This document shows positions 3,221-31,113 of a DNA stretch of 37,266 nt, one piece after another (the stretch's first letter is position 1; each line of letters starts with the position of its first letter). The stretch lies in NCBI GenBank assembly GCA_052055015.1, contig JBQJIT010000065.1; one strand, 5' to 3'. A program made the position numbers and the translations under genes. The notes beneath the pieces were generated by a model. That model was not told the DNA's origin, did not search any database, and worked only from the letters and a program-made list of their open reading frames with translations. Origin of the DNA: Malassezia furfur. Taxonomy: Eukaryota.

Positions 3221-4199
3221 ATGCCGTCCGAACCGCTGGACGCGGCCACCGAGGAGTATCTCCTGTGGCTCCTCTCAGATTCAAACTTACCCACAGGTAT
3301 GCTGAGGCGCTCATCCAGGTGGTTTTATCGCGTCCGCGGGCCTCGAATCGTACTATGCTCACGGCTTTCTAACGCACGCCCTCAAGCCCGGTGCGTCGCA
3401 CCAACACGCCGTTGTCCAACGTACCATTGACTTTGTCGAGTTCTCGCTGAGCAACTACGTGCAGTCCGTGCTGCCGTTCCTGCACGCCGCTTACTGCGTC
3501 ACGAAGTCGCTTGCACACGACACACCCCGCGCGATGCGCGCATTGGCCTGGCTCGACGCGCAGCACCATACCCTCTTGCTAAACCATGTTGCGCGCCGCG
3601 CATCTCTCATTCAGGGCAGTGCACTGCTCTCGCTCTTCGTGAAATCGTTTGCCCAGCGCGATGCGACGGCGCACTCGCTCGTGGATCGCCTTCGCGTCAA
3701 TGCCCGTCGAGGGTGTGCGAAGCTGAATAATGGCACAACCGCACTGCGTCCTGGTGCAGAAGAACTCGCGGGGCATTTGGCCATATGCGCTGGTGTGTTT
3801 GCAGCGGTCATTGGGCTGTCAGAAGAGCGCATGCTCCGCCAGAACCTCTTCCTCCAAGCCCGCAACATTATGTCGTGCTCCATTCGCCTCAATACCATTG
3901 GGCCCTATATGGCGCACCAACTGCTTGCATCCCAGCTGCATGAGCTCGTGGCGCGCCACTTTGGGAGGTTGGACCGTGGCGTATGCCAGCACCTGTTCGA
4001 TCAGGCGCTGCACGCATCTGAGATCGAGGCGCCGGCGGCATCTCAACGCGCCTCTCCATCCAATGGTCGCGATTGGGACTGGGACTGGGAGGATCCAGTG
4101 AGGCATGCGCAAGAGCTTACGCCATGTATGACTTGGCCACTAGGTGAGATTATCCAGGCAAGACACGACCAACTGCACTCGCGGCTATTTAATAGTTAA
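3221..4199 (+). CDS. ureF: Urease accessory protein UreF-like
   Basis: ATG 3221. Intron 3297-3318 (22 nt) restores LLSDSNLPTGGFIASAGLES, the UreF N-terminal motif. Also GHLAIC and the family C-terminus HDQLHSRLFNS*. Confidence 0.88.
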
Positions 4200-4900
4200 T
4201 TGATTGTGACGAAGCGGTTCGCACAACAACCCGCTTTTCAAAATGCATGTGGGGTTCGCCTTCCTCCATGAATTCAATATTATCGGTATGGTAGCCGAGA
4301 CTGTGTGAGCACTCGCAACCTACCGGTCATAGAACTTCCGCGCAATCACCAAGGCATTGAGCTCGATGTTTGCGTCCACCGTTTGTGTGCCACGCGGAAT
4401 GGGCGTATTGCTCAGCGCTTGGACCACCCATTTCTCCGCACTGTCCAGAAGGTAGCGGCCTGCGCCACGACCACGACGCGTAGCGCTGATGACAATACGA
4501 CCTAGCTTGACACCGGAAAGAAGCACGGAAGTGCCGTCAGCAGATAGCTCGAGCACCTGCTGGCAGTTCACGATCGAGGCTATCACCTGTGCTTCGGATC
4601 GCTGATGCCCCGGCGGAGACTGATCCTTACGACTTTGAGGGTAGCATGTCTCCGGTTCATCGGGTAATGGCAGGGGAATGATGCGCAATGTTCCCTGAAT
4701 GCTCTTGTCGCTCTCGTCAATAAGAAGCAAGCGCGCACTGATGTCGTCGAGGCTGTGTAAGCGCAGCTGACCTGCCTATTCATATCACGATTGGCATCGA
4801 ACCCCTGTTCTTCTACATAAACCTTGTATCTCAGGTTGTACGCTGCACTCAGTTCACTATCGGTGAGTGCAAGCCGCCAGGAGAAGTCATTTAATGCCAT
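4189..4900 (-). CDS. GNAT N-acetyltransferase, YjcF/ElaA-like, tandem copy 1
   Basis: ATG 4900. Intron 4753-4775 (23 nt, GC-AG) and intron 4301-4323 (23 nt). Motifs AAYNLRYKVYVEEQGF, KLGRIVISATRRGRGAGRYLL (acetyl-CoA motif A), ARKFYDRLGY, EFMEEGEPHMHF. Confidence 0.85.
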
Positions 4901-4934
4901 GAAGTTTAAGAATCAGCCGAGGCAATTGCCTGGA

Positions 4935-4941
4935 TGAGTCA
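4935..4941. promoter_or_regulatory. TGAGTCA (Gcn4/AP-1-type bZIP site) upstream of GNAT copy 1
   Basis: Exact TGAGTCA about 35 bp upstream of the ATG. The 11-mer TGGATGAGTCA also lies upstream of copy 2. Function is inferred. Confidence 0.4.
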
Positions 4942-5217
4942 CCTTCATGATTCCGCCAAATCGGTAACTGCCAAAAAGTTGGACATGCGGGGAAAATAGT
5001 AGGCGCATCGGCCAGGGTCTAGTTAAGGTTAAATGCAAACCTGTCGGAACTAAGAAAGGATGAGACTGGCTTTCTGATCAAGGCTTTCTATTGAACATCC
5101 CATAATCTAAAACTCTTGTTATAACGGGGATAGGAAGGCTTTATAGTGGGCGACTATCGATGAGCGGGCATGAATTGATGTATTTTGGAGAAATCGAAAG
5201 GATAGTGCATAGACCAA

Positions 5218-5914
5218 TCAAACACCCTTCCGGACAGTAACCCGCTTTTTGAAAAGGACATGGGGCTCGCCCTCGTCCAGGAATTCCACATTGTCCGTTG
5301 CATAGTTGAGACTGAATTAGTATAACACGCCACGTACCGGTCATAGAATTGGCGGGCACGGACTTGACCACCAAGCTGAATCAAGGCTTCCACCTCTTTG
5401 ACACCCTGCTTCACTGGTACTTGCGCCAGCGCCTCGACGACCCATTTCTCAGCACTGTCGACCAAAAAGCGGCCGGCACCCTGGCCTCTAAGTGAGCTGC
5501 TGACCACAATACGACCAAACTTCACCCCAGAAAGTAGGATAGAAGGCCCATTTGCAGTCTCTTCCACAACTTCTTGTTGATTCGCGATGGAGGCGATTAC
5601 TTGCTCTTCTGTACGAGCGCGGCCAGGTGGTGACTGATCCTTCCTTTGGCAGCCCGGAAAGGTAACCTCCCCACTTGGTAATGGGCAAGGAATAATGCGT
5701 AGTGTACCTTTCACACTGCCGTTGGACGTGTCAATTAACAGCAGATGCGCTGCAATCTCATCGAGGCTGAGTAAGTCAGCTGGTCTCACCTGTCAATATC
5801 AAGGTTCGGATCAAAACCTTGCTCCTCTACAAAAACTTTGTGGCGAATGTTGTACGCAGCACACAGCTCTTCATCAGAGAGCGCAAGGCGGCACGACAGC
5901 GTATCGGAAATCAT
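5218..5914 (-). CDS. GNAT N-acetyltransferase, YjcF/ElaA-like, tandem copy 2
   Basis: ATG 5914 (MISDTLSCRLALSDEELCAAYNIRHKVFVEEQGF). Introns 5767-5789 (23 nt) and 5312-5337 (26 nt). KFGRIVVSSSLRGQGAGRFLV, ARQFYDRLNY, EFLDEGEPHVLF. TGA ends at 5218. Confidence 0.87.
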
Positions 5915-5943
5915 GGGGGGCAATACTAGCCTAAGTGCGTGGA

Positions 5944-5950
5944 TGAGTCA
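5944..5950. promoter_or_regulatory. TGAGTCA (Gcn4/AP-1-type bZIP site) upstream of GNAT copy 2
   Basis: Exact TGAGTCA about 30 bp upstream of ATG 5914, within the same 11-mer as in copy 1. Confidence 0.4.
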
Positions 5951-6038
5951 GCTATGGCCTGGTGGTCCAAGCGCCCTCGCGACGAGCCTAGATGTGGAGA
6001 TGAGGCGACCCATATTGGCAACGCGCAGTCAACTTGGC

Positions 6039-6730
6039 TCAGGAAGGTGTCTGCTCACGCACGAGAATGCGCTTCTCAAAATGCATGTGGGGCTCACCCT
6101 CTTCCAGATACTCGACGTTGTCTGTCTGGTACCCAAGGCTGCATTAGACGTGTGACCTACCGGTCATAGAACCTGCGTGCTTGAGATTGACTGCTGAGAT
6201 GGATGCTGGCATACACCCTCCCAATGTCCGGCTTGACAGATACGTCAGATAAAGCCTTCGTAATCCATTCTTCTGCACCCTTCATTAGGAAACGACCGGC
6301 TCCGCATCCCCGATAAGGCGCTCTTACTGCCACGCGGCCAATCTTCGCGCCGGACAGCGCAAGGGTGTTACCATCAGCAGACAGTTTTTGAGCCTGTGCA
6401 AGCGATGCGGCAACCTGCTCTTCCGTTCGACCGCTGCCAGGGGGAGAATGATCCTTTCTCTTTGCATCATGCACAACGAAGCTGTCCGTACAAAGAGGAT
6501 AGGATAGGATACGCAGGGTGCCTTGTACACTCCCATTGCTTTCGTCAACGAGTAGGATATGGGCCGCCGTGTCGTCGAAACTGATAAGAATAACGGACAC
6601 ACCTGTCGAGGTCACGGTCAGCTCCAAAGCCTTGCTCGTCTACAAAGACTTCATAGCGTAGATTGTATGCTGCGCATAAGTCAGCGTTGGACAAGGCCAG
6701 GCGCAAGCCGAACTTAGGTGACTCCATCAT
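6039..6730 (-). CDS. GNAT N-acetyltransferase, YjcF/ElaA-like, tandem copy 3
   Basis: ATG 6730. Introns 6581-6602 (22 nt) and 6139-6160 (22 nt). AAYNLRYEVFVDEQGF, AKIGRVAVRAPYRGCGAGRFLM, IHLSSQSQARRFYDRLGY, EYLEEGEPHMHF. Closest of the four to the bacterial YjcF pattern as recalled. Confidence 0.88.
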
Positions 6731-6892
6731 AGAAGTGGAGAAAACCTACCCGGATGGATTTAACACCCCTACTAGATGTGAGATCTGCGAATGAGTCGAC
6801 GCTCGATGGCAAGCAAGTGTTTGAGCATTTTGTGCACTCTAGGCCCCATATCTAAACCGAACACCACGGCATAGTCCAGGGCGGTTGATAAC

Positions 6893-6960
6893 TGTTTTTT
6901 TTTTTGTTTCCTTCACAGGTTTTCTTCCACAATTTTTTGTTTAAGAGTTAAAAAAAAAGC
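6893..6960. repeat. Poly(dT)/poly(dA)-rich low-complexity patch between GNAT copies 3 and 4
   Basis: T run at about 6895-6905, more T runs to 6942, A run at 6950-6958. By eye, the most AT-rich stretch in the window. Confidence 0.7.
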
Positions 6961-7098
6961 TTTGGAAATTGCATATCATCAAGTGCGACTACGGACAGAC
7001 AGGTGCTTGCCCATCATTCAAACTTGAATGCATAGAACCCTGGTTATGGACACCAAGTCTGTCCCTGGCAATTTCGATAATCTTAAAATATTTAAAAT

Positions 7099-7789
7099 TT
7101 AGTCCTTGCGCACGGTGATGCGCTTGGAGTAAAGAAGGTGGGGGTGGCCCTCCTCCAAGTACTCGTTGTTGTCGGTGTGGTAACCCAAGCTGGGTGAGTT
7201 AAGATACATACTGGTCATAGAACTTGCGAGCACTCACAAGGCCACTAATCTCGATGGTCGCATCGACTTCCTTAGTGCCTTTAGTCACAGGCGTCTGGTT
7301 CAGCGCCTGAATGATCCACTTTTCGGCACCGTCCAGCAGGTGGCGACCACCGCCGCGACCGCGGTGCGCGGTGTGCACGGCAATGCGACCCAGCCTCACG
7401 CCAGAAATGAGTGCCGAAGGGCCATCGGCAGACTGCTCGAGAAGCTGCTGGCCATCGACAAGAGCCGAAATGACCTGCTCCTCCGTACGGCCGCTACCAG
7501 GGGGCGAGTTGTCCCTCCGGCTGGCCTCGTAGTAGAGAGGGGCCTTGTCCTCGACAGGAAGCGGCACAACGCGCAGAGTGCCCTGCACACTGTTGTCACC
7601 ATCGTCGATCAGCAAAAGCTGTGCAGCCGTGTCGTCGAAGCTGCGGGTGAGCACATTCACTTACCTGTCGAGCTCACGGCCGGCATCAAAGCCATGCTCC
7701 TTAACAAAGATCTCATGGCGCATGTTGTATGCGGCCTTGAGATCCTCATCAGAGAGAGCGAGGCGCCAACTGAAGCTGTGGGTAGACAT
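7099..7789 (-). CDS. GNAT N-acetyltransferase, YjcF/ElaA-like, tandem copy 4
   Basis: ATG 7789 (MSTHSFSWRLALSDEDLKAAYNMRHEIFVKEHGF). Introns 7641-7664 (24 nt) and 7190-7211 (22 nt). RLGRIAVHTAHRGRGGGRHLL, ARKFYDHLGY, EYLEEGHPHLLY. TAA ends at 7099. Confidence 0.88.
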
Positions 7790-8076
7790 GATGTTGTGAA
7801 GAAACGAAACTAGGGCTGCTCCCGATGAATAAAACCCGGAACCCCCGGCTTCTCCATGTGGGCGAGCCACATTCGTCGAAAGCCGTGGAATCATAAACGT
7901 GCTCGTACTACCCGTAGCAGACATCATGACACGTAGAAGCATGTCTGCACTATTTTGAAGGGCGCCGGCACGCGGCACGTCACTGAACCGTGGGTTCAGC
8001 CGTTGCCCACTGGGGGGTGGTCCATCTAGAGCATGGAAGACGGCGCGTTGATGAACTGTGGTATAGTATAGCCTAA

Positions 8077-8336
8077 TTACACACGCTTGGAGAAACGTGC
8101 GAGGTGGTAGTTGATCGTCGGCTTGCTCTTGTTGACCGCCGCACGCTGGGTGAGATTAGAAAACGTACCTTGGTCGCCATGCACTCGCGCAAGGTCCGTG
8201 TGGGCTCCAGGCACACCGACTGTGACCGGATATCATTCGAGCTCGCCCAGCACGCAAGAACAGCCGCAAACTCGGCCGCGCATGGCGCATTGGCAGCCAT
8301 CTTCTTGGGGCGCACCTTCAATTTGTCGACCTTCAT
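8077..8336 (-). CDS. MRP10: Mitochondrial small-subunit ribosomal protein mS37 (Mrp10)
   Basis: MKVDKLKVRPKK...PCAAEFAAVLACWAS...CLEPTRTLRECM (twin CX9C). Intron 8146-8168 (23 nt), then KPTINYHLARF, the family C-terminus. Confidence 0.85.
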
Positions 8337-8364
8337 CGCACTGAAGAAGGAGCCAACAGAATGC

Positions 8365-8370
8365 CACGTG
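8365..8370. promoter_or_regulatory. CACGTG E-box in the divergent MRP10/Sec61-beta spacer
   Basis: Palindromic CACGTG in the 82-bp spacer. It recurs in three other divergent spacers (10236, 16639, 30241). Confidence 0.35.
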
Positions 8371-8418
8371 GCGTGGAGGTTCCCTCTTGTCGGCCATCGT
8401 TCCACACCTTTGATTGGA

Positions 8419-8785
8419 ATGGTGCGTGGTTGCTCGTCGCTTACACAGTCTTCGTCTACTGGTCATCAGCCCCTTACGCAAGCGCAGCTTGCTGCTCTTG
8501 CCAGCCGTAACTCGAGTGTGATGCGGTACGTTCCGACACTCACGCAGGCGGCGCGCAGCGCAGAAGGAGGCCGAAAAGCCGCATAGCGCTCGTGCGGCTG
8601 GCGCTGGTGGCAGCTCTAGCACGATGCTACGCTTGAACACGGATGACAGTCGTGGTCTGAGCGTGTACGTTACCTGATCCTTACGCAGCGACCCTGTGGT
8701 TGTACTGGTCTTGTCGGTTGCCTTCGTGTTTAGCGTCGTGCTTCTGCATATCCTCGGCAAAGTCGCTCGCTACTTCTCGAAGTGA
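8419..8785 (+). CDS. SBH1: Sec61 translocon beta subunit (Sbh1/Sbh2 family)
   Basis: First exon is the ATG alone (8419-8421). Introns 8422-8448 (27 nt), 8526-8547 (22), 8665-8688 (24). Product has AAGAGGSSSTMLRLNTDDSRGLSVDPVVVLVLSVAFVFSVVLLHILGK, the Sec61-beta signature with tail anchor. Confidence 0.9.
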
Positions 8786-8808
8786 TGATGATTTTTTTCC
8801 AAATGCTG

Positions 8809-10180
8809 CTATTCACTGATAAACGTGTGCTCCTCAAAGAGTGTGCCCTTCACCGTGACCGTCTCCTCAGACCCGGAGTCGGATGCAGGGAGCTTCAACT
8901 TGAGCTCCGCAGGGTTCATGGTTTGATAGATGTACGGCTTCGTGCCGGCAACATAGTTCACGATCTTCTTCACAAAGAAGGGAATCTCTTCCATGACATC
9001 GACCTTGTCGACCAGGCCCTTCGTTGCAGAAGGCGCGCCCAGCTGCACCTGGAGCTCTGCCGAAACAGGCTTGTGCTGGGCAATGGTTTGGCCATCCCAA
9101 CGATACGCAATCGACTGCGGCACCTTGTAGCCAGTCAGGTCATCTAGCACCTTGTCCAAGTGGTCAATGCGCGTCTTGCTGTGGCGCGGCGGCGCGTCTT
9201 CAGGCGCATCCAAATCGCGCGTCCCAGCAACGACTGCGATCAGCTCACCTTTGTGTACGAGCGAGCCAATCGTGACGATCTGCGACGCCCGCTTCATGGG
9301 CGTCCCATCCTCACCAACATGGCAGATACCATAGTCCGACGTCGTGGTGAACTCCATCAGCAGCGCCGAGACGCCATCCTGCTCGGGGCTCTGGAACGTG
9401 CAGAAGTTCCACCGAGCAGCCACGAGGTTCGGGCGCATACCTTGAATGGCATGCACAAAGGCACCTTGGCCATTTGCGTCGATGGCGGCACCGTCCAAGA
9501 CAATCAGACCGCTTGTCACAGCGTACGGCCAGAAACGGTGCACGACGTACCCAGCAGGCGAGGCGATGTTTTCACCAAAGTAGCTGAACCCGCCACGCTC
9601 ACCATTTCCGAGCTTCCAGCCCTTGGCGGCAGCAGGCCGCTTCATGGAGTACATAAGTTGCACGTCCTTGTCCAGGTTCGCCTGAATCATATATTCCTGC
9701 GAACCGTCGGGAAGATCCTTCATGGACACAGTGAAAGCATTCGACTTCGTCGACCGCTTCTCGTTGTCCAGTGGGGTAAATCCCTCCGCCTTGGTCGACT
9801 TCCAAATCTTACGGCCCGTCTTGGGGTTGAAGTACTTGAACGTCATGTGCACCTGGGGGTTCCAGAGGCTGGGTCAGCAAGGGAGGGGCACGTACCCAAC
9901 GGATGAGTAGATAATCTGGCTCATGACAAAAGCTCCATCCTCCAGAATCGAGTACCACACCTGTGTCTCGGTGGTGAGGCCCGACGGGCACGTCCAGTTC
10001 AGATCCGTGCGCGCCAACTCTCCGTACAATTCGGACTGGGGGAAGGCGTCCGAAATGGCATGGAAATTCGTTCCATGGCCGGCTGCACCAGCAGTTTTGC
10101 CCTCGTCTGCCTGCGGTTGCGATGATCCAGTCCTGGGGTCAACAAAATGATGCATACAGCCAAGAGCTCCAACTCGACAT
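8809..10180 (-). CDS. SVF1: Survival factor Svf1-like protein
   Basis: ATG 10180 (MSSWSSWLTG). Introns 10133-10157 (25 nt) and 9869-9895 (27 nt). Motifs TETQVWY, SQIIYSSVG, HRFWP, IQGMRPNLVAARWNF, DKVDVMEEIPFFVKKIV, TKPYIYQ, EHTFISE*. Confidence 0.88.
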
Positions 10181-10301
10181 GGTAATGTAAAAGCTTCCGG
10201 CCCTGCGACCAAAACAGGGTCGTGCACCGTCTTTGCACGTGGCCCAAATTTCGGCCGGCTCTCACCAAGGCGCAGAGCAACACGACCCATCTGACTGCGC
10301 G

Positions 10302-11307
10302 ATGCGCCTGCGTGCACGGGTCACGGATATAGGACTCTTGACGGGACTCGCGCGTAGGTTTCGTACTGATCGTAGAGACGGCATCAAATGTTTCCCCGCG
10401 GTCTTTCTTGCAATTCACGCCAGACTACTTGCGACTGATTTGCCCCAATGGCCGTGACGGGATCCAGATCTGGGCGACGCTGCCCGTCGTACGTGGGACG
10501 CTTACACAGTCGGCTCTCTTCGCCGAATACCGTGTCGAGTCCAATCGAAACAACGAGGTGACTTTGGAAGTGGCCACCGAAGCGTTGGCACGTGTGCTCC
10601 GCTCGGCGGCTGGCGCGTTGGACCTGGTCTTGCGTCTAGGCAAACGAAACGGTGAGCCCTTGTTGAGCATGGCGATCGCGATGTCATCCCATTCCGGATC
10701 GCGACTTGATGTCACGCAAGATATTCTCATTCGAATCCTGCGCACGTCGGAGCTGAACCTCATTACCGAGCCCATGTGTCCCCCACCTGATGTACGCACA
10801 ACTACGTTGACTCGCCTAGGTATATATCACGTTGCCGCCGCTGGCCGAGGTGCGCGCTGTTGCGGAACAAATGCGGCCTATGTCGAGTGAAGTGTGCCTT
10901 GCTGCAAATCAGCAGGGTACATTCCGCCTGGCTGTGCTCGACAGTGAAGTGGTGGGTGATGCGAGTTGGTCCGACCTCGAAATGCCCCGCGTACAAGGTA
11001 TGCTGCTGCGATCGGTCGCTGACAGGACAGGGCGTGACACGGGAATCGGCACGAGTTCCCGGGAATTTCACGAGGTCCGCCTGAGCATGCGTGCGCTGCA
11101 GAACGTACTCAGCAGTGCCTCAGTGGCAAAATCGACCATTGCGTGCCTTTGCGCTGACTATTGCATTGTATTATACGTGTATCTCACTGGCCAGCCAGAA
11201 CGAAGTGCGAACAACTCCGTCACCGGAGTTCTGAATGTATGTTACTGCGTTCCGATTGGATGCTTAAATCTCAGTTCATTGTCGCTGGCCTCGACTCCGT
11301 AGATTAA
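10302..11307 (+). CDS. HUS1: 9-1-1 checkpoint clamp subunit Hus1/Mec3
   Basis: ATG 10302 (MRLRARV). Introns 10354-10375 (22 nt), 10489-10509 (21), 10792-10819 (28), a possible in-frame one of about 33 nt near 10998, and 11237-11274 (38). Motifs FLQFTPDYLRLI, GIQIWATL, LFAEYRVES, EPMCPPPDVYITLPPL, CIVLYVYL. Confidence 0.82.
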
Positions 11308-12042
11308 GAAATTCGTTAATCCCGATCAGGCCGTGCCGCCGCAGTCCACGCACCCGCTGCCTGTCAACCGCGGTTATTTTTAGGCGCCTGGCCCGATCTG
11401 CCAGGCCAAGTTGCCTTGACTCACTCCACTAATGCTCCACAGCGAATCAGCGCTACTCTCGGAATTGAGGCACAGCTTATTCCTTTAGCCGGGCGTTGCC
11501 CAATAGCCTAGTAGGTGTTATTGACATGTCGGAACTCCGAAAGCGACGTAACTTACCTTTGTAAACGAGATCGATTCACCGGCGTTTACAGGTCCAAATT
11601 GCGAATTCGACGCAAGTTTGGCCAATGGCAGATAGACAACGTGGGGTTCATGGGAACACGATATAGCGACAGCTGTCCAGTTCAATTCCCGTCCAACGTT
11701 TGTCCCTTGCTCTGCAGGCTGGTCTTCTACCCAGCTTGACCCGGCTGGAAACCCAGCTAGAAGGACGGTTTGTGCATCTCCTGCGTTGGTGTGACGAACG
11801 TCGAAATTGGCACGTTGCTTTCCTACTTTGCAGAAAAAAAAAAAAAAACTGCGAAGCAGTAGAAGCTGCCGACGACCCAAAAAGCTGTAGATAGGCTTGG
11901 GTGACGACCTACCAGCAAGTACGGGTTTGTGCCTTGCAACAAGTGCATCAAGCCGTGCTCATTTTCCCTACAATCGCATACCGACCTACGACCCTAGATC
12001 CAGCGGTAAGACCGCGACGCGATTCCCTGTCGCTTGGATAGA

Positions 12043-14108: not shown

Positions 14109-14748
14109 CGACGCGCCGCCCGATGTGGATGCCGCACTAGACCTCGACGTGGAGGCAACGACGGGCTTGGAGCAAGCGTAAGTGGCGCCCTACTGACGCA
14201 GTGCCTACGCGGTTGGCTATGAGCAAGGTATCGACCGAGGCGAGCGCTTTGGACACGGTGAAGGGCGTCTGCTGGGGCGCGAAAAAGGATTCGAGCTCTG
14301 GGAAGAACTGGGCTACTACCTTGGCACGATCCATACCTGGCGGCGCATTCTTGAACACGAACGGGGCGGGTACGTACAACAAAGCTCACGCAGCGGCAGT
14401 CGCAAGACACAAAAGCAGCTGCAGCACCTAGGGAATCTTGAATCGCTTATCCAGCAGATGCCGATGCATAACGACTCGACGGTGCTCCACGATGAACACG
14501 CACCTACCTCTAACGACGACGATGATGAATCCCAGCCGGGCCTACAGCGGCTGCTCGAGCGGATCCGCGCGCGCTACAAGCTCGCGAGCTCCAGCTTGGG
14601 CATGCCGAGATACACACAACTCCCTTATACAGAGGCCACCAAGCCGGAGACGGGCGGGCCCGAGGCAAGCGGCCCCGCCGAGTCCGCCAAATCGCACTAC
14701 TCCCGCGTGGCTGGGCAGCTGGTGGATGTGACGCAACTCAAGTACTGA
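14109..14748 (+). CDS. LTO1: Lto1/ORAOV1-like Fe-S targeting adaptor (Yae1_N GX3 repeats); start must come from an upstream exon
   Basis: Intron 14178-14201 (24 nt) gives LEQAAYAVGYEQGIDRGERFGHGEGRLLGREKGFELWEELGYYLG. The C-terminal part has LLERIRARYKLASSSLG. No in-frame ATG lies between TAA 14095 and the domain. Confidence 0.8.
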
Positions 14749-18295: not shown

Positions 18296-19002
18296 TTAGA
18301 GACCTTCGTCTACGTTGACCACGCGACTCGGATCGGTCAGGTGTGCCACGTCCGCCCACCGGCGCAGCACCGCCGGTGTGCTTGTCAGGTCGATCTCCGA
18401 AATGCTGCAATTCCAGAAACGCGAGGGCTGTACGTCTGGGGCGAGCTCAACGTGCCCATCAGCGAACAGCACCGTATTGGTGAGCGCACTGAGCGCACCG
18501 CCGTGGCTCACCAGCACCGTCGTCCCTGGCGTGCGCGCAGCCGTCACACGCAGATCGTCATAGAAGGCCCGCAGCCGTGATGTCATCCTGCGTCAGCATC
18601 GCGCACACGTACGCCTCGCGGCTCTCGATGCCCTCGGTGTCGTCGGGCTTTTGCGAAGGACCTCGGTACACTTTGCCCTGCAGCACGCCAAAGTGGCGCT
18701 CCATGATGCGCGCATCTGTCTCGACGGGGACTTTGGGATGGTGCCGTGCAATGGCCTCTGCAGTCTGGGTTAGTTTGGCGCACGTACATGCAGTGCGCGC
18801 GTCAGCGGGCTCGACACGATGCGCACAATCGGCGCGTCGCGGAGCGCCTCGCCCGTCATGGTCGCCTGGCGTCGGCCAAGATCATTGAGCGGCGTGTCCA
18901 GCTGGCCCTGGATAATACCTGCATAAGCATTGGCGACGCACCCTGCACATTCTCATTCGTCTCGCCGTGCCGCACGAGCAGCAAGCGCGGCGAAGACGCC
19001 AT
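18296..19002 (-). CDS. Histidine phosphatase (phosphoglycerate mutase-like family)
   Basis: ATG 19002. Introns 18919-18941 (23 nt), 18765-18787 (23), 18588-18612 (25). LLLVRHGETNEN, SSPLTRALHTA, ERHFGVLQG, VLVSHGG, NCSISEI. Confidence 0.88.
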
Positions 19003-21644: not shown

Positions 21645-22628
21645 TTAGCGCCAACGGTTGCGATCCATGCCGCCCCGTGCACCCATGCGCCCTGGGTGCG
21701 GGCACGCATTGGCAAAGTGGCCATACTCGCCGCACTTGTAGCATAGCACCTCGTTCAGCTCGCGCCGGCGCGGATCGCGCGGCGCGCTGGCCATTGGCGT
21801 CTTGCGCAGCTCTTCGGCGGCGGCCCAGTCGGCCTCGGGCACGATGGCGCGACCTGTGCGCGGGTCGGTCGGCAGCTCGTGAATGCCGGGCCCCGTGCCA
21901 AAGGCCTGCATGATCGGCAACGGGCGATGCGTGAGTAGCGGCGTGGTGGCACGCGACTCGGGCGTCGGTTGGAGCGCCTTGACGCTGGGTGAGCTCAAGT
22001 GACGTACTGTCCTAGGTTGCATTCGGGCCCAAGTGGGCAAAAGCCTGCGAGGTAGTACGGGCATGCCACTTGGCGCATGTGTTTCTTGGGGCATTGCGGA
22101 CCTGGGTTAGTCGCGCGCCGACATACCGCGGGGGCAAAAGCCGCGCTTGTACAGTTCGCACTCGCGGCGCTTCACCGATGGGTCGATGTGCACGTACAGG
22201 CACTCGTCACCGGCGTTGCAGAAACCGTACGTCGCATAGAAGCGACACTCGGCCATGCGTCGCAGGTCGTACTCGTGCAGGTAGTCGCAAGCGTCGCCCT
22301 TTTTGCACAGGCCACGCAACCAGTGCTTGCACACGGTACGGCGCAGCGCATCACGCCCAGGCGCGGGCACCGCAGGTGACGGCGTGACGATGTGGCGCAG
22401 TGGGCACTGGCTCTGGAGCGCGCAGCGCCCTTTGCGGTACCGCGGGCAGACTTCGTCGTCGGTGTCGAGGCGTAGCTGCAACTCGCGCTTCACGAACGGC
22501 TCAAACGAGAATTCGTTGTGCTGCCAGTCGCCCTCTGTCGGGGGGCGCCGGATACGCACGCTCGAGAAGAGCGACGAATTGGCATGGATGGGGACATAGT
22601 CCACCGGCAGCGCGAGGATGTCGGACAT
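21645..22628 (-). CDS. YTH1: mRNA 3'-end processing factor Yth1/CPSF30
   Basis: Five CCCH fingers, including [22 protein letters not shown]. Introns 22102-22126 (25 nt) and 21985-22007 (23 nt) complete fingers 4 and 5. C-terminal CCHC knuckle [14 protein letters not shown]. Confidence 0.92.
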
Positions 22629-30292: not shown

Positions 30293-31113
30293 ATGTCGAG
30301 GCAGCCCGAAGTGGGAGAGATCCCCGAGCACGCCGCCAAGGACCTCAAGCAGGTTGAGAAGGACCTCGATGAGGCCGAGGCCGAGATTCGTACGTGCGCT
30401 ATGCTCACCGTGCAGTGAAATACTCTGCGCGTCTGCACGACCCGATCTTTGCCAAGCGCGACGTCGTCTTGGAGAAGATCGACAAGTTCTGGCCGCAGGC
30501 GCTGACGAATTGTGTGTCGACCAACGTGTACATTGATGATGACGATCATGCACTGCTCGACTCGGTCACCAAGATCGCTGTGAAGCGTGACGTGAACGAC
30601 CCACGCGCCGCCACGATCGAGTTCCACTTTGCGCCGAACGACTTTATCAACGACACGGTGCTTGTGAAGGAGTTCAAGCTCGACCCGAAGGCAGGCCCCT
30701 TCTCGGCTCAGTTCGACTTTGCTTCGGAGACCATCCCGCAGCCGACGACGATCCAGTGGAAGTCGGACGAGAAGAACCTGTCGAAGCGCAAGCCCACCAT
30801 TGGTGACCTCAAGGAAATTAAGGAGGGCGAAGAGGACGCCGAGGACGAGGAGGAGGACGACTTCGAGCCGGGTTCCTTCTTCTCGAGCTTCTTCGACAGC
30901 CAGAGCCGTCAGGTGGCCGGCAGCATTGGCCAGGCCATCGTCGAGGACCTGTACCCGAACGCGGTGCAGCACTACGAGAGCCCTTCGCTGTACGAGGACG
31001 AGGACGAGGAGGACGAGGAGGACGAGGAAGACGAGGAGGACGAGGACGATGACGACCGCGAGATCGATCTCGAGGAGGAGGAGACGCGTCCTAAGAAGAA
31101 GTCGCGCAAGTAG
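30293..31113 (+). CDS. NAP-family histone chaperone (Vps75/SET-like)
   Basis: ATG 30293. Intron 30390-30415 (26 nt). PIFAKRDVVLEKIDKFWPQAL, IEFHFAPNDF, TIQWK, SFFSSFF, IVEDLYPNAVQHY, then an acidic tail and NLS-like PKKKSRK. Confidence 0.88.
30994..31056 (+). repeat. GAG/GAC microsatellite encoding an Asp/Glu tail
   Basis: Run of GAGGAC/GAGGAG units encoding EDEDEEDEEDEEDEEDEDDDD. Confidence 0.75.

Follow-up and report, generated by a model that had tools for sequence, protein, structure and literature searches.

What do four similar genes, lying head-to-tail on one strand of a Malassezia furfur contig, encode, and what does their retention mean? The genes (g1 to g4, minus strand, 4189..7789) lie in a 37,266-nucleotide stretch of contig JBQJIT010000065.1 (assembly GCA_052055015.1), hereafter the window. 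A sequence-only reading had described them as diverged, intact GNAT acetyltransferases of the YjcF/ElaA type and had considered them a candidate for an undescribed system. Our analysis gives a more conventional answer: a known enzyme type has expanded in this lineage, the array is not a new kind of system, and nothing links the four genes functionally beyond their paralogy. We consider it probable that an Ustilaginomycotina-specific subfamily of ElaA/YjcF-like GNATs expanded here, long ago and in tandem, from one gene to four independent N-acyltransferases, of which g1, g2 and g3 have shifted.

The array holds exactly four head-to-tail genes, and its limits run exactly from the stop codon of g1 through the ATG of g4. 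After two short introns were removed from each gene by script, all four spliced frames are open, with products of 214-221 residues. Gene g1 (4189..4900, 221 residues) comprises exons 4900-4776, 4752-4324 and 4300-4189, separated by 23-nucleotide introns at 4753-4775 and 4301-4323; g2 (5218..5914, 215 residues) comprises exons 5914-5790, 5766-5338 and 5311-5218, with introns at 5767-5789 (23 nucleotides) and 5312-5337 (26 nucleotides). Likewise, g3 (6039..6730, 215 residues) is made of exons 6730-6603, 6580-6161 and 6138-6039, with 22-nucleotide introns at 6581-6602 and 6139-6160, and g4 (7099..7789, 214 residues) of exons 7789-7665, 7640-7212 and 7189-7099, with introns at 7641-7664 (24 nucleotides) and 7190-7211 (22 nucleotides). 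Given that exon 1 measures 125 or 128 nucleotides and exon 2 420 or 429, both introns are in phase 2, and they interrupt homologous codons throughout the array. Of the eight introns, which measure 22-26 nucleotides, seven have GT-AG borders and the first intron of g1 has GC-AG; a CTNAY-like branch motif can be read by eye a few bases before the AG in every one. At the g4 junctions, the residues agree with two NCBI gene models, M. brasiliensis MBRA1_000227 (P0002 in our searches) and that of M. obtusa (P0004). The four same-strand genes with open frames and identically placed phase-2 micro-introns stand as first described. Searching the whole window with the four proteins (tblastn) found no fifth copy or remnant.

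The small introns are no peculiarity of the array, and introns of such size are normal for the genus Malassezia. The curated M. sympodialis annotation lists 5350 introns with a mean of 30 bp, of which 99% have RNA-seq support (PMC5389616, Table 2), Malassezia introns are described as 'very short' in a review (PMC7426719) and the M. restricta annotation set the minimum intron length at 15-20 (PMC6473144). Scanned with a loose intron pattern, the window gave 147 rows, of which many overlap or are false; seven of the eight array introns are among them, the missing one being intron 1 of g2, whose donor falls outside the scan pattern. By eye, about two dozen more intron candidates of 21-31 nucleotides, with GTAYGT-type donors and CTNAC branch motifs, are seen in other genes of the window (e.g. 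2790-2813, 8665-8688, 14370-14393, 18765-18787, 21985-22007 and 30390-30415).

By sequence and by fold, the array proteins are GNAT acyltransferases. Pfam scores of P0002 exceed the gathering cut-offs for Acetyltransf_5 (31.5 against 22.4), Acetyltransf_7 (28.8 against 27), Acetyltransf_10 (26.8 against 23.6) and Acetyltransf_1 (22.2 against 20.7); P0004 and P0015 gave similar results, and the exon-2 fragments of g1 to g4 taken alone gave GNAT matches mostly below the cut-offs. An AlphaFold2 model of P0002, built from a 14-sequence alignment, reached a pLDDT of 92.5. At least 500 of its Foldseek matches are GNATs, headed by 3efa, 5jph (SACOL1063), 1q2y (YjcF), 1xeb and 5z6n (ElaA), at ranks 1-5 and 8. 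VIA-align, which is independent of Foldseek, gave Z 17.3 for 3efa, 17.3 for 1q2y (YjcF) and 16.5 for 1xeb, against 12-14 for generic GNATs, and phmmer against PDB sequences groups P0002 with 3efa (1.9e-9), SACOL1063 and YjcF. All four copies carry the coenzyme A (CoA) loop RG(R/C/Q)G(G/A)GR between beta4 and alpha3. Together, these sequence and fold matches make the YjcF/ElaA assignment correct at the level of a structural subgroup. Below that level it has to be narrowed, as the proteins belong to an insert-bearing Ustilaginomycotina subfamily and are not ElaA equivalogs: on the equivalog model NF007644/PRK10314, with a cut-off of 171 bits, P0004 scores 18.4 and P0015 24.3, and P0002 is not listed.

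Size sets the subfamily apart as well. At 214-221 residues the array proteins fall outside the ~140-155 residues of a compact single domain, and the ~65 residues by which they exceed the solved proteins are due mainly to an insert of ~48 residues between beta3 and beta4 (model residues ~69-116), modelled as two short helices and a strand. Its core, SPPG..R.E, is invariant in the four paralogues and their orthologues. In the 14-sequence alignment 14 positions are invariant across the family, among them the RG.G.GR loop, Y183 and P201-H202; every copy keeps 13 or 14 of them (g3 all 14, g1 and g2 13 each), and g1 and g2 share the change A129V at one such site. The motif pattern originally attributed to the array is present in all four copies, although only approximately, with VYV in g1, LNY and LDEG in g2, and IFV and EHG in g4. 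The most diverged copy is g3, which has a deletion of three residues inside the insert. Substitutions relative to orthologues are concentrated in the insert (9-14 of 45-48 sites in g1 to g3) and in the beta5-alpha4 segment, and are fewer in the CoA region of beta4-alpha3.

The N-terminal part of the domain admits a different reading, in which the copies are long-chain N-acyl amino-acid or amine synthases of the FeeM/OlsB/LuxI kind drawing fatty acyl-CoA from host lipids. Acetyltransf_5 is the top Pfam family for P0002 (residues 23-83), and among NCBIfam models the N-terminal 70 residues are best matched by an exosortase-associated acyltransferase (5.2e-8) and by the ornithine N-acyltransferase OlsB (1.5e-7), above any acetyltransferase model. 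These matches are confined to the N-terminal motif (residues 3-76) and lie far under the cut-offs, at 32.6 against 111.95 for TIGR03694 and 31.5 against 350 for OlsB; the same motif is also found in the insert-less bacterial and Mortierellomycota relatives. In the fold comparison FeeM (2g0b) aligns over 156 residues, more than the ElaA-like chains do, with Z 14.2, and the acyl-homoserine lactone (AHL) synthases RpaI and TofI reach Z 13.3-13.4, all three being above many GNATs; AHL-synthase matches in phmmer are weak (E 0.02-0.09). The ElaA/YjcF-like chains nonetheless score higher than all of these in fold and, with 25-32%, in identity, and we regard a long-chain synthase as unlikely. A more specific version, which we think quite unlikely, would give this skin yeast, which depends on lipids, a substrate-diversified set of such synthases, with the insert forming the acyl or acceptor pocket and g1 to g3 following different amines from the host or from microbes.

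The same fold search bears on whether the copies might instead acetylate proteins, at N-termini or at lysines, each paralogue with targets of its own. NatA, Naa50, RimI and Ard1 chains score Z 13.4-14.0, and a Ceraceosorus relative has been named 'N-terminal acetyltransferase'. That name is only the depositor's label, those Z values are at the level of generic GNATs, 3-4 units under the ElaA/YjcF group, and scores on the rimI model are 14-16 bits, where the cut-off is 86; this reading has a slim chance. Substrate-specific NCBIfam models in general (aminoglycoside, streptothricin, polyamine, arsinothricin, RimI and others) returned 11-25 bits against cut-offs of 86-420. A MadA/YiiD-type malonyl-acyl carrier protein decarboxylase, which appeared as a structure neighbour in the Atlas, was considered and rejected, given that the decarboxylase there is the hot-dog domain and not the GNAT domain (PMC8666670).

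The age of the copies follows from their divergence. The paralogues are 53-61% identical in amino acids, in agreement with the strong divergence first noted, and 55-62% in nucleotides. By the Nei-Gojobori method, the proportion of synonymous differences (pS) between paralogues is 0.74-0.89, i.e. saturated, and the nonsynonymous distance (dN) is 0.32-0.41; the copies are therefore old and under purifying selection. The synonymous distance (dS) is finite in two of the six pairs, where dN/dS is 0.11 and 0.12. Together with the retained invariant residues, these ratios support the view that the copies are intact and constrained, not decaying.

Where the duplications fall was read from a maximum-likelihood tree of the exon-2 region with 37 rows: the four window proteins and 33 of 184 database proteins, aligned over 243 columns of which 144 were kept. 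Insert-bearing matches were chosen, and bacterial, Mortierellomycota and two-domain forms were excluded. The four window proteins form one clade (97/90) with the fragments P0008, P0009, P0010 and P0014, which upholds the lineage-specific expansion proposed at the outset. P0008 is of the g1 type (83% identity), P0009 of the g2 type (80-82%) and P0010 of the g3 type (85%), and the g4 branch (94/95) holds M. obtusa, M. psittaci and M. brasiliensis. The sister group of this clade consists of thirteen further rows, which are probably other Malassezia, judged solely by their LPG.GR(T/S) insert motif; the other Ustilaginomycotina are the outgroup (100/99). This topology dates the duplications after the split from other Malassezia-like lineages and before the split of M. 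obtusa. The duplications fall within the clade of M. furfur, M. brasiliensis, M. psittaci and M. obtusa.

The wider family points the same way. A phmmer search with P0002 against 1.84 billion representative proteins returned 249 matches at E <=1e-3, 36 at <=1e-10 and 7 at <=1e-30, and a profile search, with 8000 candidates scored, found 35 proteins at E <=1e-5. Three Malassezia species have the insert-bearing form, which is also present in Tilletiaria, Violaceomyces, Sporisorium (two), Pseudozyma, Ceraceosorus, Thecaphora and Acaromyces; all its members go under the names hypothetical or 'N-acetyltransferase domain-containing'. Proteins without the insert, ~145-150 residues long, are found in Mortierellomycota and in bacteria (e.g. 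Peribacillus). The insert-bearing family being spread across Ustilaginomycotina, it is best described as a vertically inherited variant of a widespread bacterial-type GNAT and not as a recent transfer into Malassezia. An origin of the array itself by horizontal transfer from bacteria was considered and rejected, since the insert family is common to Ustilaginomycotina and, relative to those outgroups, the Malassezia-like rows group in one clade. In a metagenome scan the sole match was one of 23 residues on a contig of 1 kb.

Among individual orthologues, g4 is 96.7% identical to P0002 of M. brasiliensis, 79% to the M. psittaci protein and 72% to that of M. obtusa, identities that place the window in a Malassezia of the furfur/brasiliensis group. 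P0001 is a further g4-type sequence, 98% identical in exon 2. The clusters of P0001, P0009 and P0010 report the same longest contig, of 2,750,656 bases, which suggests one related genome with g2-, g3- and g4-type genes on one chromosome and very unequal divergence from the window. Tandem arrangement is seen elsewhere in the family, too. In P0021, a single open reading frame (ORF), residues 7-147 match residues 57-211 of P0002 and residues 154-191 match residues 6-43; it reads as a copy without intron 2 that runs in frame into exon 1 of the next copy, presumably in a more distant Malassezia-like genome. P0022 (355 residues) is a two-domain protein of the insert-less type and P0031 (319 residues) likewise has two domains, and from these three cases it follows that head-to-tail duplication is recurrent in this GNAT family.

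The concern that automated annotation would miss these genes proved justified in part. The g4 orthologues are annotated, as hypothetical proteins, in three Malassezia species. The M. psittaci model MPSI1_001324 (P0003), for its part, ends in a C-terminus without the conserved LGY...EEG.PH segment, probably with intron 2 missed or misplaced, and orthologues of g1 to g3 are met only as unspliced ORF fragments, open across exon 2 (P0008, P0009 and P0010); none of the three homology searches made returned a named protein matching g1 to g3. A description of the array or of its family is absent from the literature searched: the main texts of PMC4634964, PMC7426719 and PMC5389616 do not contain 'acetyltransferase' (nor does that of PMC4634964 contain 'GNAT'), whereas supplements such as S3 of PMC4634964, outside this scope, might list it, and PMC7468201 uses 'N-acetyltransferase' five times, each about MAK3.

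The four copies are not equivalent. GC content at third codon positions (GC3) is 0.71 in g4 and 0.52-0.57 in g1 to g3, to be compared with 0.65-0.82 in hand-picked, plausibly coding long ORFs of the window; non-coding frames of the window have 0.39-0.57. In the tree, g4 lies at a path length of 0.03 from its nearest orthologue and g1 to g3 at 0.15-0.18 from theirs, and g4 appears to be the conservative copy, with g1 to g3 evolving faster. Upstream, g1 and g2 have in common a block of ~20 nucleotides that is present only in degenerate versions in g3 and g4. It contains TGAGTCA, at 4935..4941 (plus strand), 35-41 nucleotides upstream of the g1 ATG, and at 5944..5950 (plus strand), 30-36 nucleotides upstream of the g2 ATG. 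We take this motif to be a putative bZIP consensus of the Gcn4/AP-1 type. With three TGASTCA sites in the window and 3.56 expected by chance, their count is not significant; the notable point is that two of the three stand at equal positions in a pair of paralogues with saturated silent sites.

Such asymmetry raises the question of whether only g4 matters, with g1 to g3 as weakly expressed duplicates drifting to loss. Their low GC3, their longer tip distances to orthologues, the GC donor in g1, the change A129V in g1 and g2, and the fact that the named annotations of three related species include an orthologue of g4 alone, are all compatible with decay. Against it, all frames have stayed open despite synonymous saturation, dN/dS is ~0.1 where measurable, the copies retain 13-14 of the 14 invariant residues, fragments orthologous to g1, g2 and g3 elsewhere are open across exon 2, and the upstream block of g1 and g2 has been kept although silent sites are saturated. 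We find decay rather improbable, and the preferred explanation remains an old tandem expansion in which all four copies are maintained.

Under that explanation, each copy would most likely act as an independent, soluble, acyl-CoA-dependent N-acyltransferase. The acyl-CoA would be bound at the R-G-x-G-x-G-R loop of beta4-alpha3, and a small amine or amino acid would be held in a cleft between three elements: the RxxVFxxEQG helix region near the N-terminus, the EEGxPH hairpin at the C-terminus and the insert peculiar to this lineage. Protonation of the leaving CoA thiolate may fall to the conserved Tyr in the FY motif, a role we infer from general knowledge of GNATs. Gene g4 would be the ancestral-type copy, and g1 to g3 have probably shifted in substrate range or in regulation. 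For the nearest solved group, the sole measured activity is that of SACOL1063, which PMC10267138 cites as acetylating Thr and some other amino acids.

Several points weigh against this explanation. No NCBIfam model was reached, there is a resemblance to OlsB and exosortase-associated acyltransferases in the N-terminal 70 residues, and the donor could carry a longer chain than acetyl. For ElaA itself no substrate is known, and its overexpression inhibited growth of E. coli (PMC6199490). Root-to-tip lengths within the clade are similar (~0.40 for g4 and 0.43-0.58 for g1 to g3), and the rate contrast between g4 and g1 to g3 may come in part from more distant species behind P0008, P0009 and P0010. 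In g1, a GT lies four bases downstream of the GC donor of intron 1 and would, if used, give a 19-nucleotide intron and a frameshift; with that donor and a frame-breaking GT so near, g1 could be poorly spliced.

Of the flanking genes named at first, one is now secure. The last exon of a gene with a UreF domain (urease accessory; PF01730, E 2.3e-17) lies at 3306..4199 on the plus strand, convergent with g1, and the end of its coding sequence overlaps the g1 stop region by 11 nucleotides (4189-4199), because g1 alone has a C-terminal extension of seven residues. On the other side of the array, at ~8077-8336 on the minus strand, lies a small CHCH/twin-Cx9C protein gene with a 23-nucleotide intron near 8147-8169. 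Its Pfam CHCH match is weak (E 0.0042, below the cut-off), which leaves 'MRP10' as a plausible candidate name only. GC content shows a trough of 0.50-0.56 at the array (0.50-0.58 over 4000-12000), with 0.60-0.73 in most of the remaining window and a few other 1-kb bins outside the array at 0.52-0.58. The 368-nucleotide spacer between g3 and g4 carries T-rich and A-rich runs at 6895-6970, which probably belong to the g3 promoter or to the 3' region of g4. A scan for bacterial promoters and terminators gave no more than shuffled sequence does, as one would expect in a eukaryote.

Malassezia has small genomes with few genes, and against this background a retained four-fold expansion stands out; selection for more than one substrate or condition is the probable cause. 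The ElaA/YjcF subgroup has solved structures and is not known to have a physiological substrate in any organism, and four diverged, constrained eukaryotic copies offer a natural comparison set for learning on what the subgroup acts. The practical value is limited to better gene models for micro-intron genes of Malassezia and a defined target for deletion and assay.

The closest known systems include hypothetical proteins of other Ustilaginomycotina, which match the family profile at E 1e-54 to 1e-71 and carry an insert at the same place. They are 24-31% identical to P0002, their inserts are longer and have PLG instead of the SPPG..R.E core, and these searches, which give protein-level matches only, found one per named species and no array. 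ElaA of E. coli (5Z6N) belongs to the same structural subgroup (Foldseek rank 8, TM-score by target 0.81) and differs in the PRK10314 equivalog score, 18-24 bits for P0004 and P0015 against 171. YjcF of B. subtilis (1Q2Y), the putative N-acetyltransferase 3EFA of L. plantarum and the acyl-CoA N-acyltransferase 1XEB of P. aeruginosa superpose with a root-mean-square deviation of 1.8-2.1 Å over 139-145 residues at 25-32% identity. Common to them and the Malassezia proteins are R..VF..EQG near the N-terminus, the RG.G.G loop and an EEG.PH hairpin at the C-terminus; they differ in length, at 140-149 residues against 214-221 in Malassezia, whose proteins add the insert of ~48 residues; judged by their entry titles, these three are without an assigned physiological substrate. 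SACOL1063 of S. aureus (5JPH/5JQ4) also lacks the insert and is 18-20% identical in the Foldseek alignment, yet it is second-best both by sequence and by Foldseek, and for no other close relative is an activity reported.

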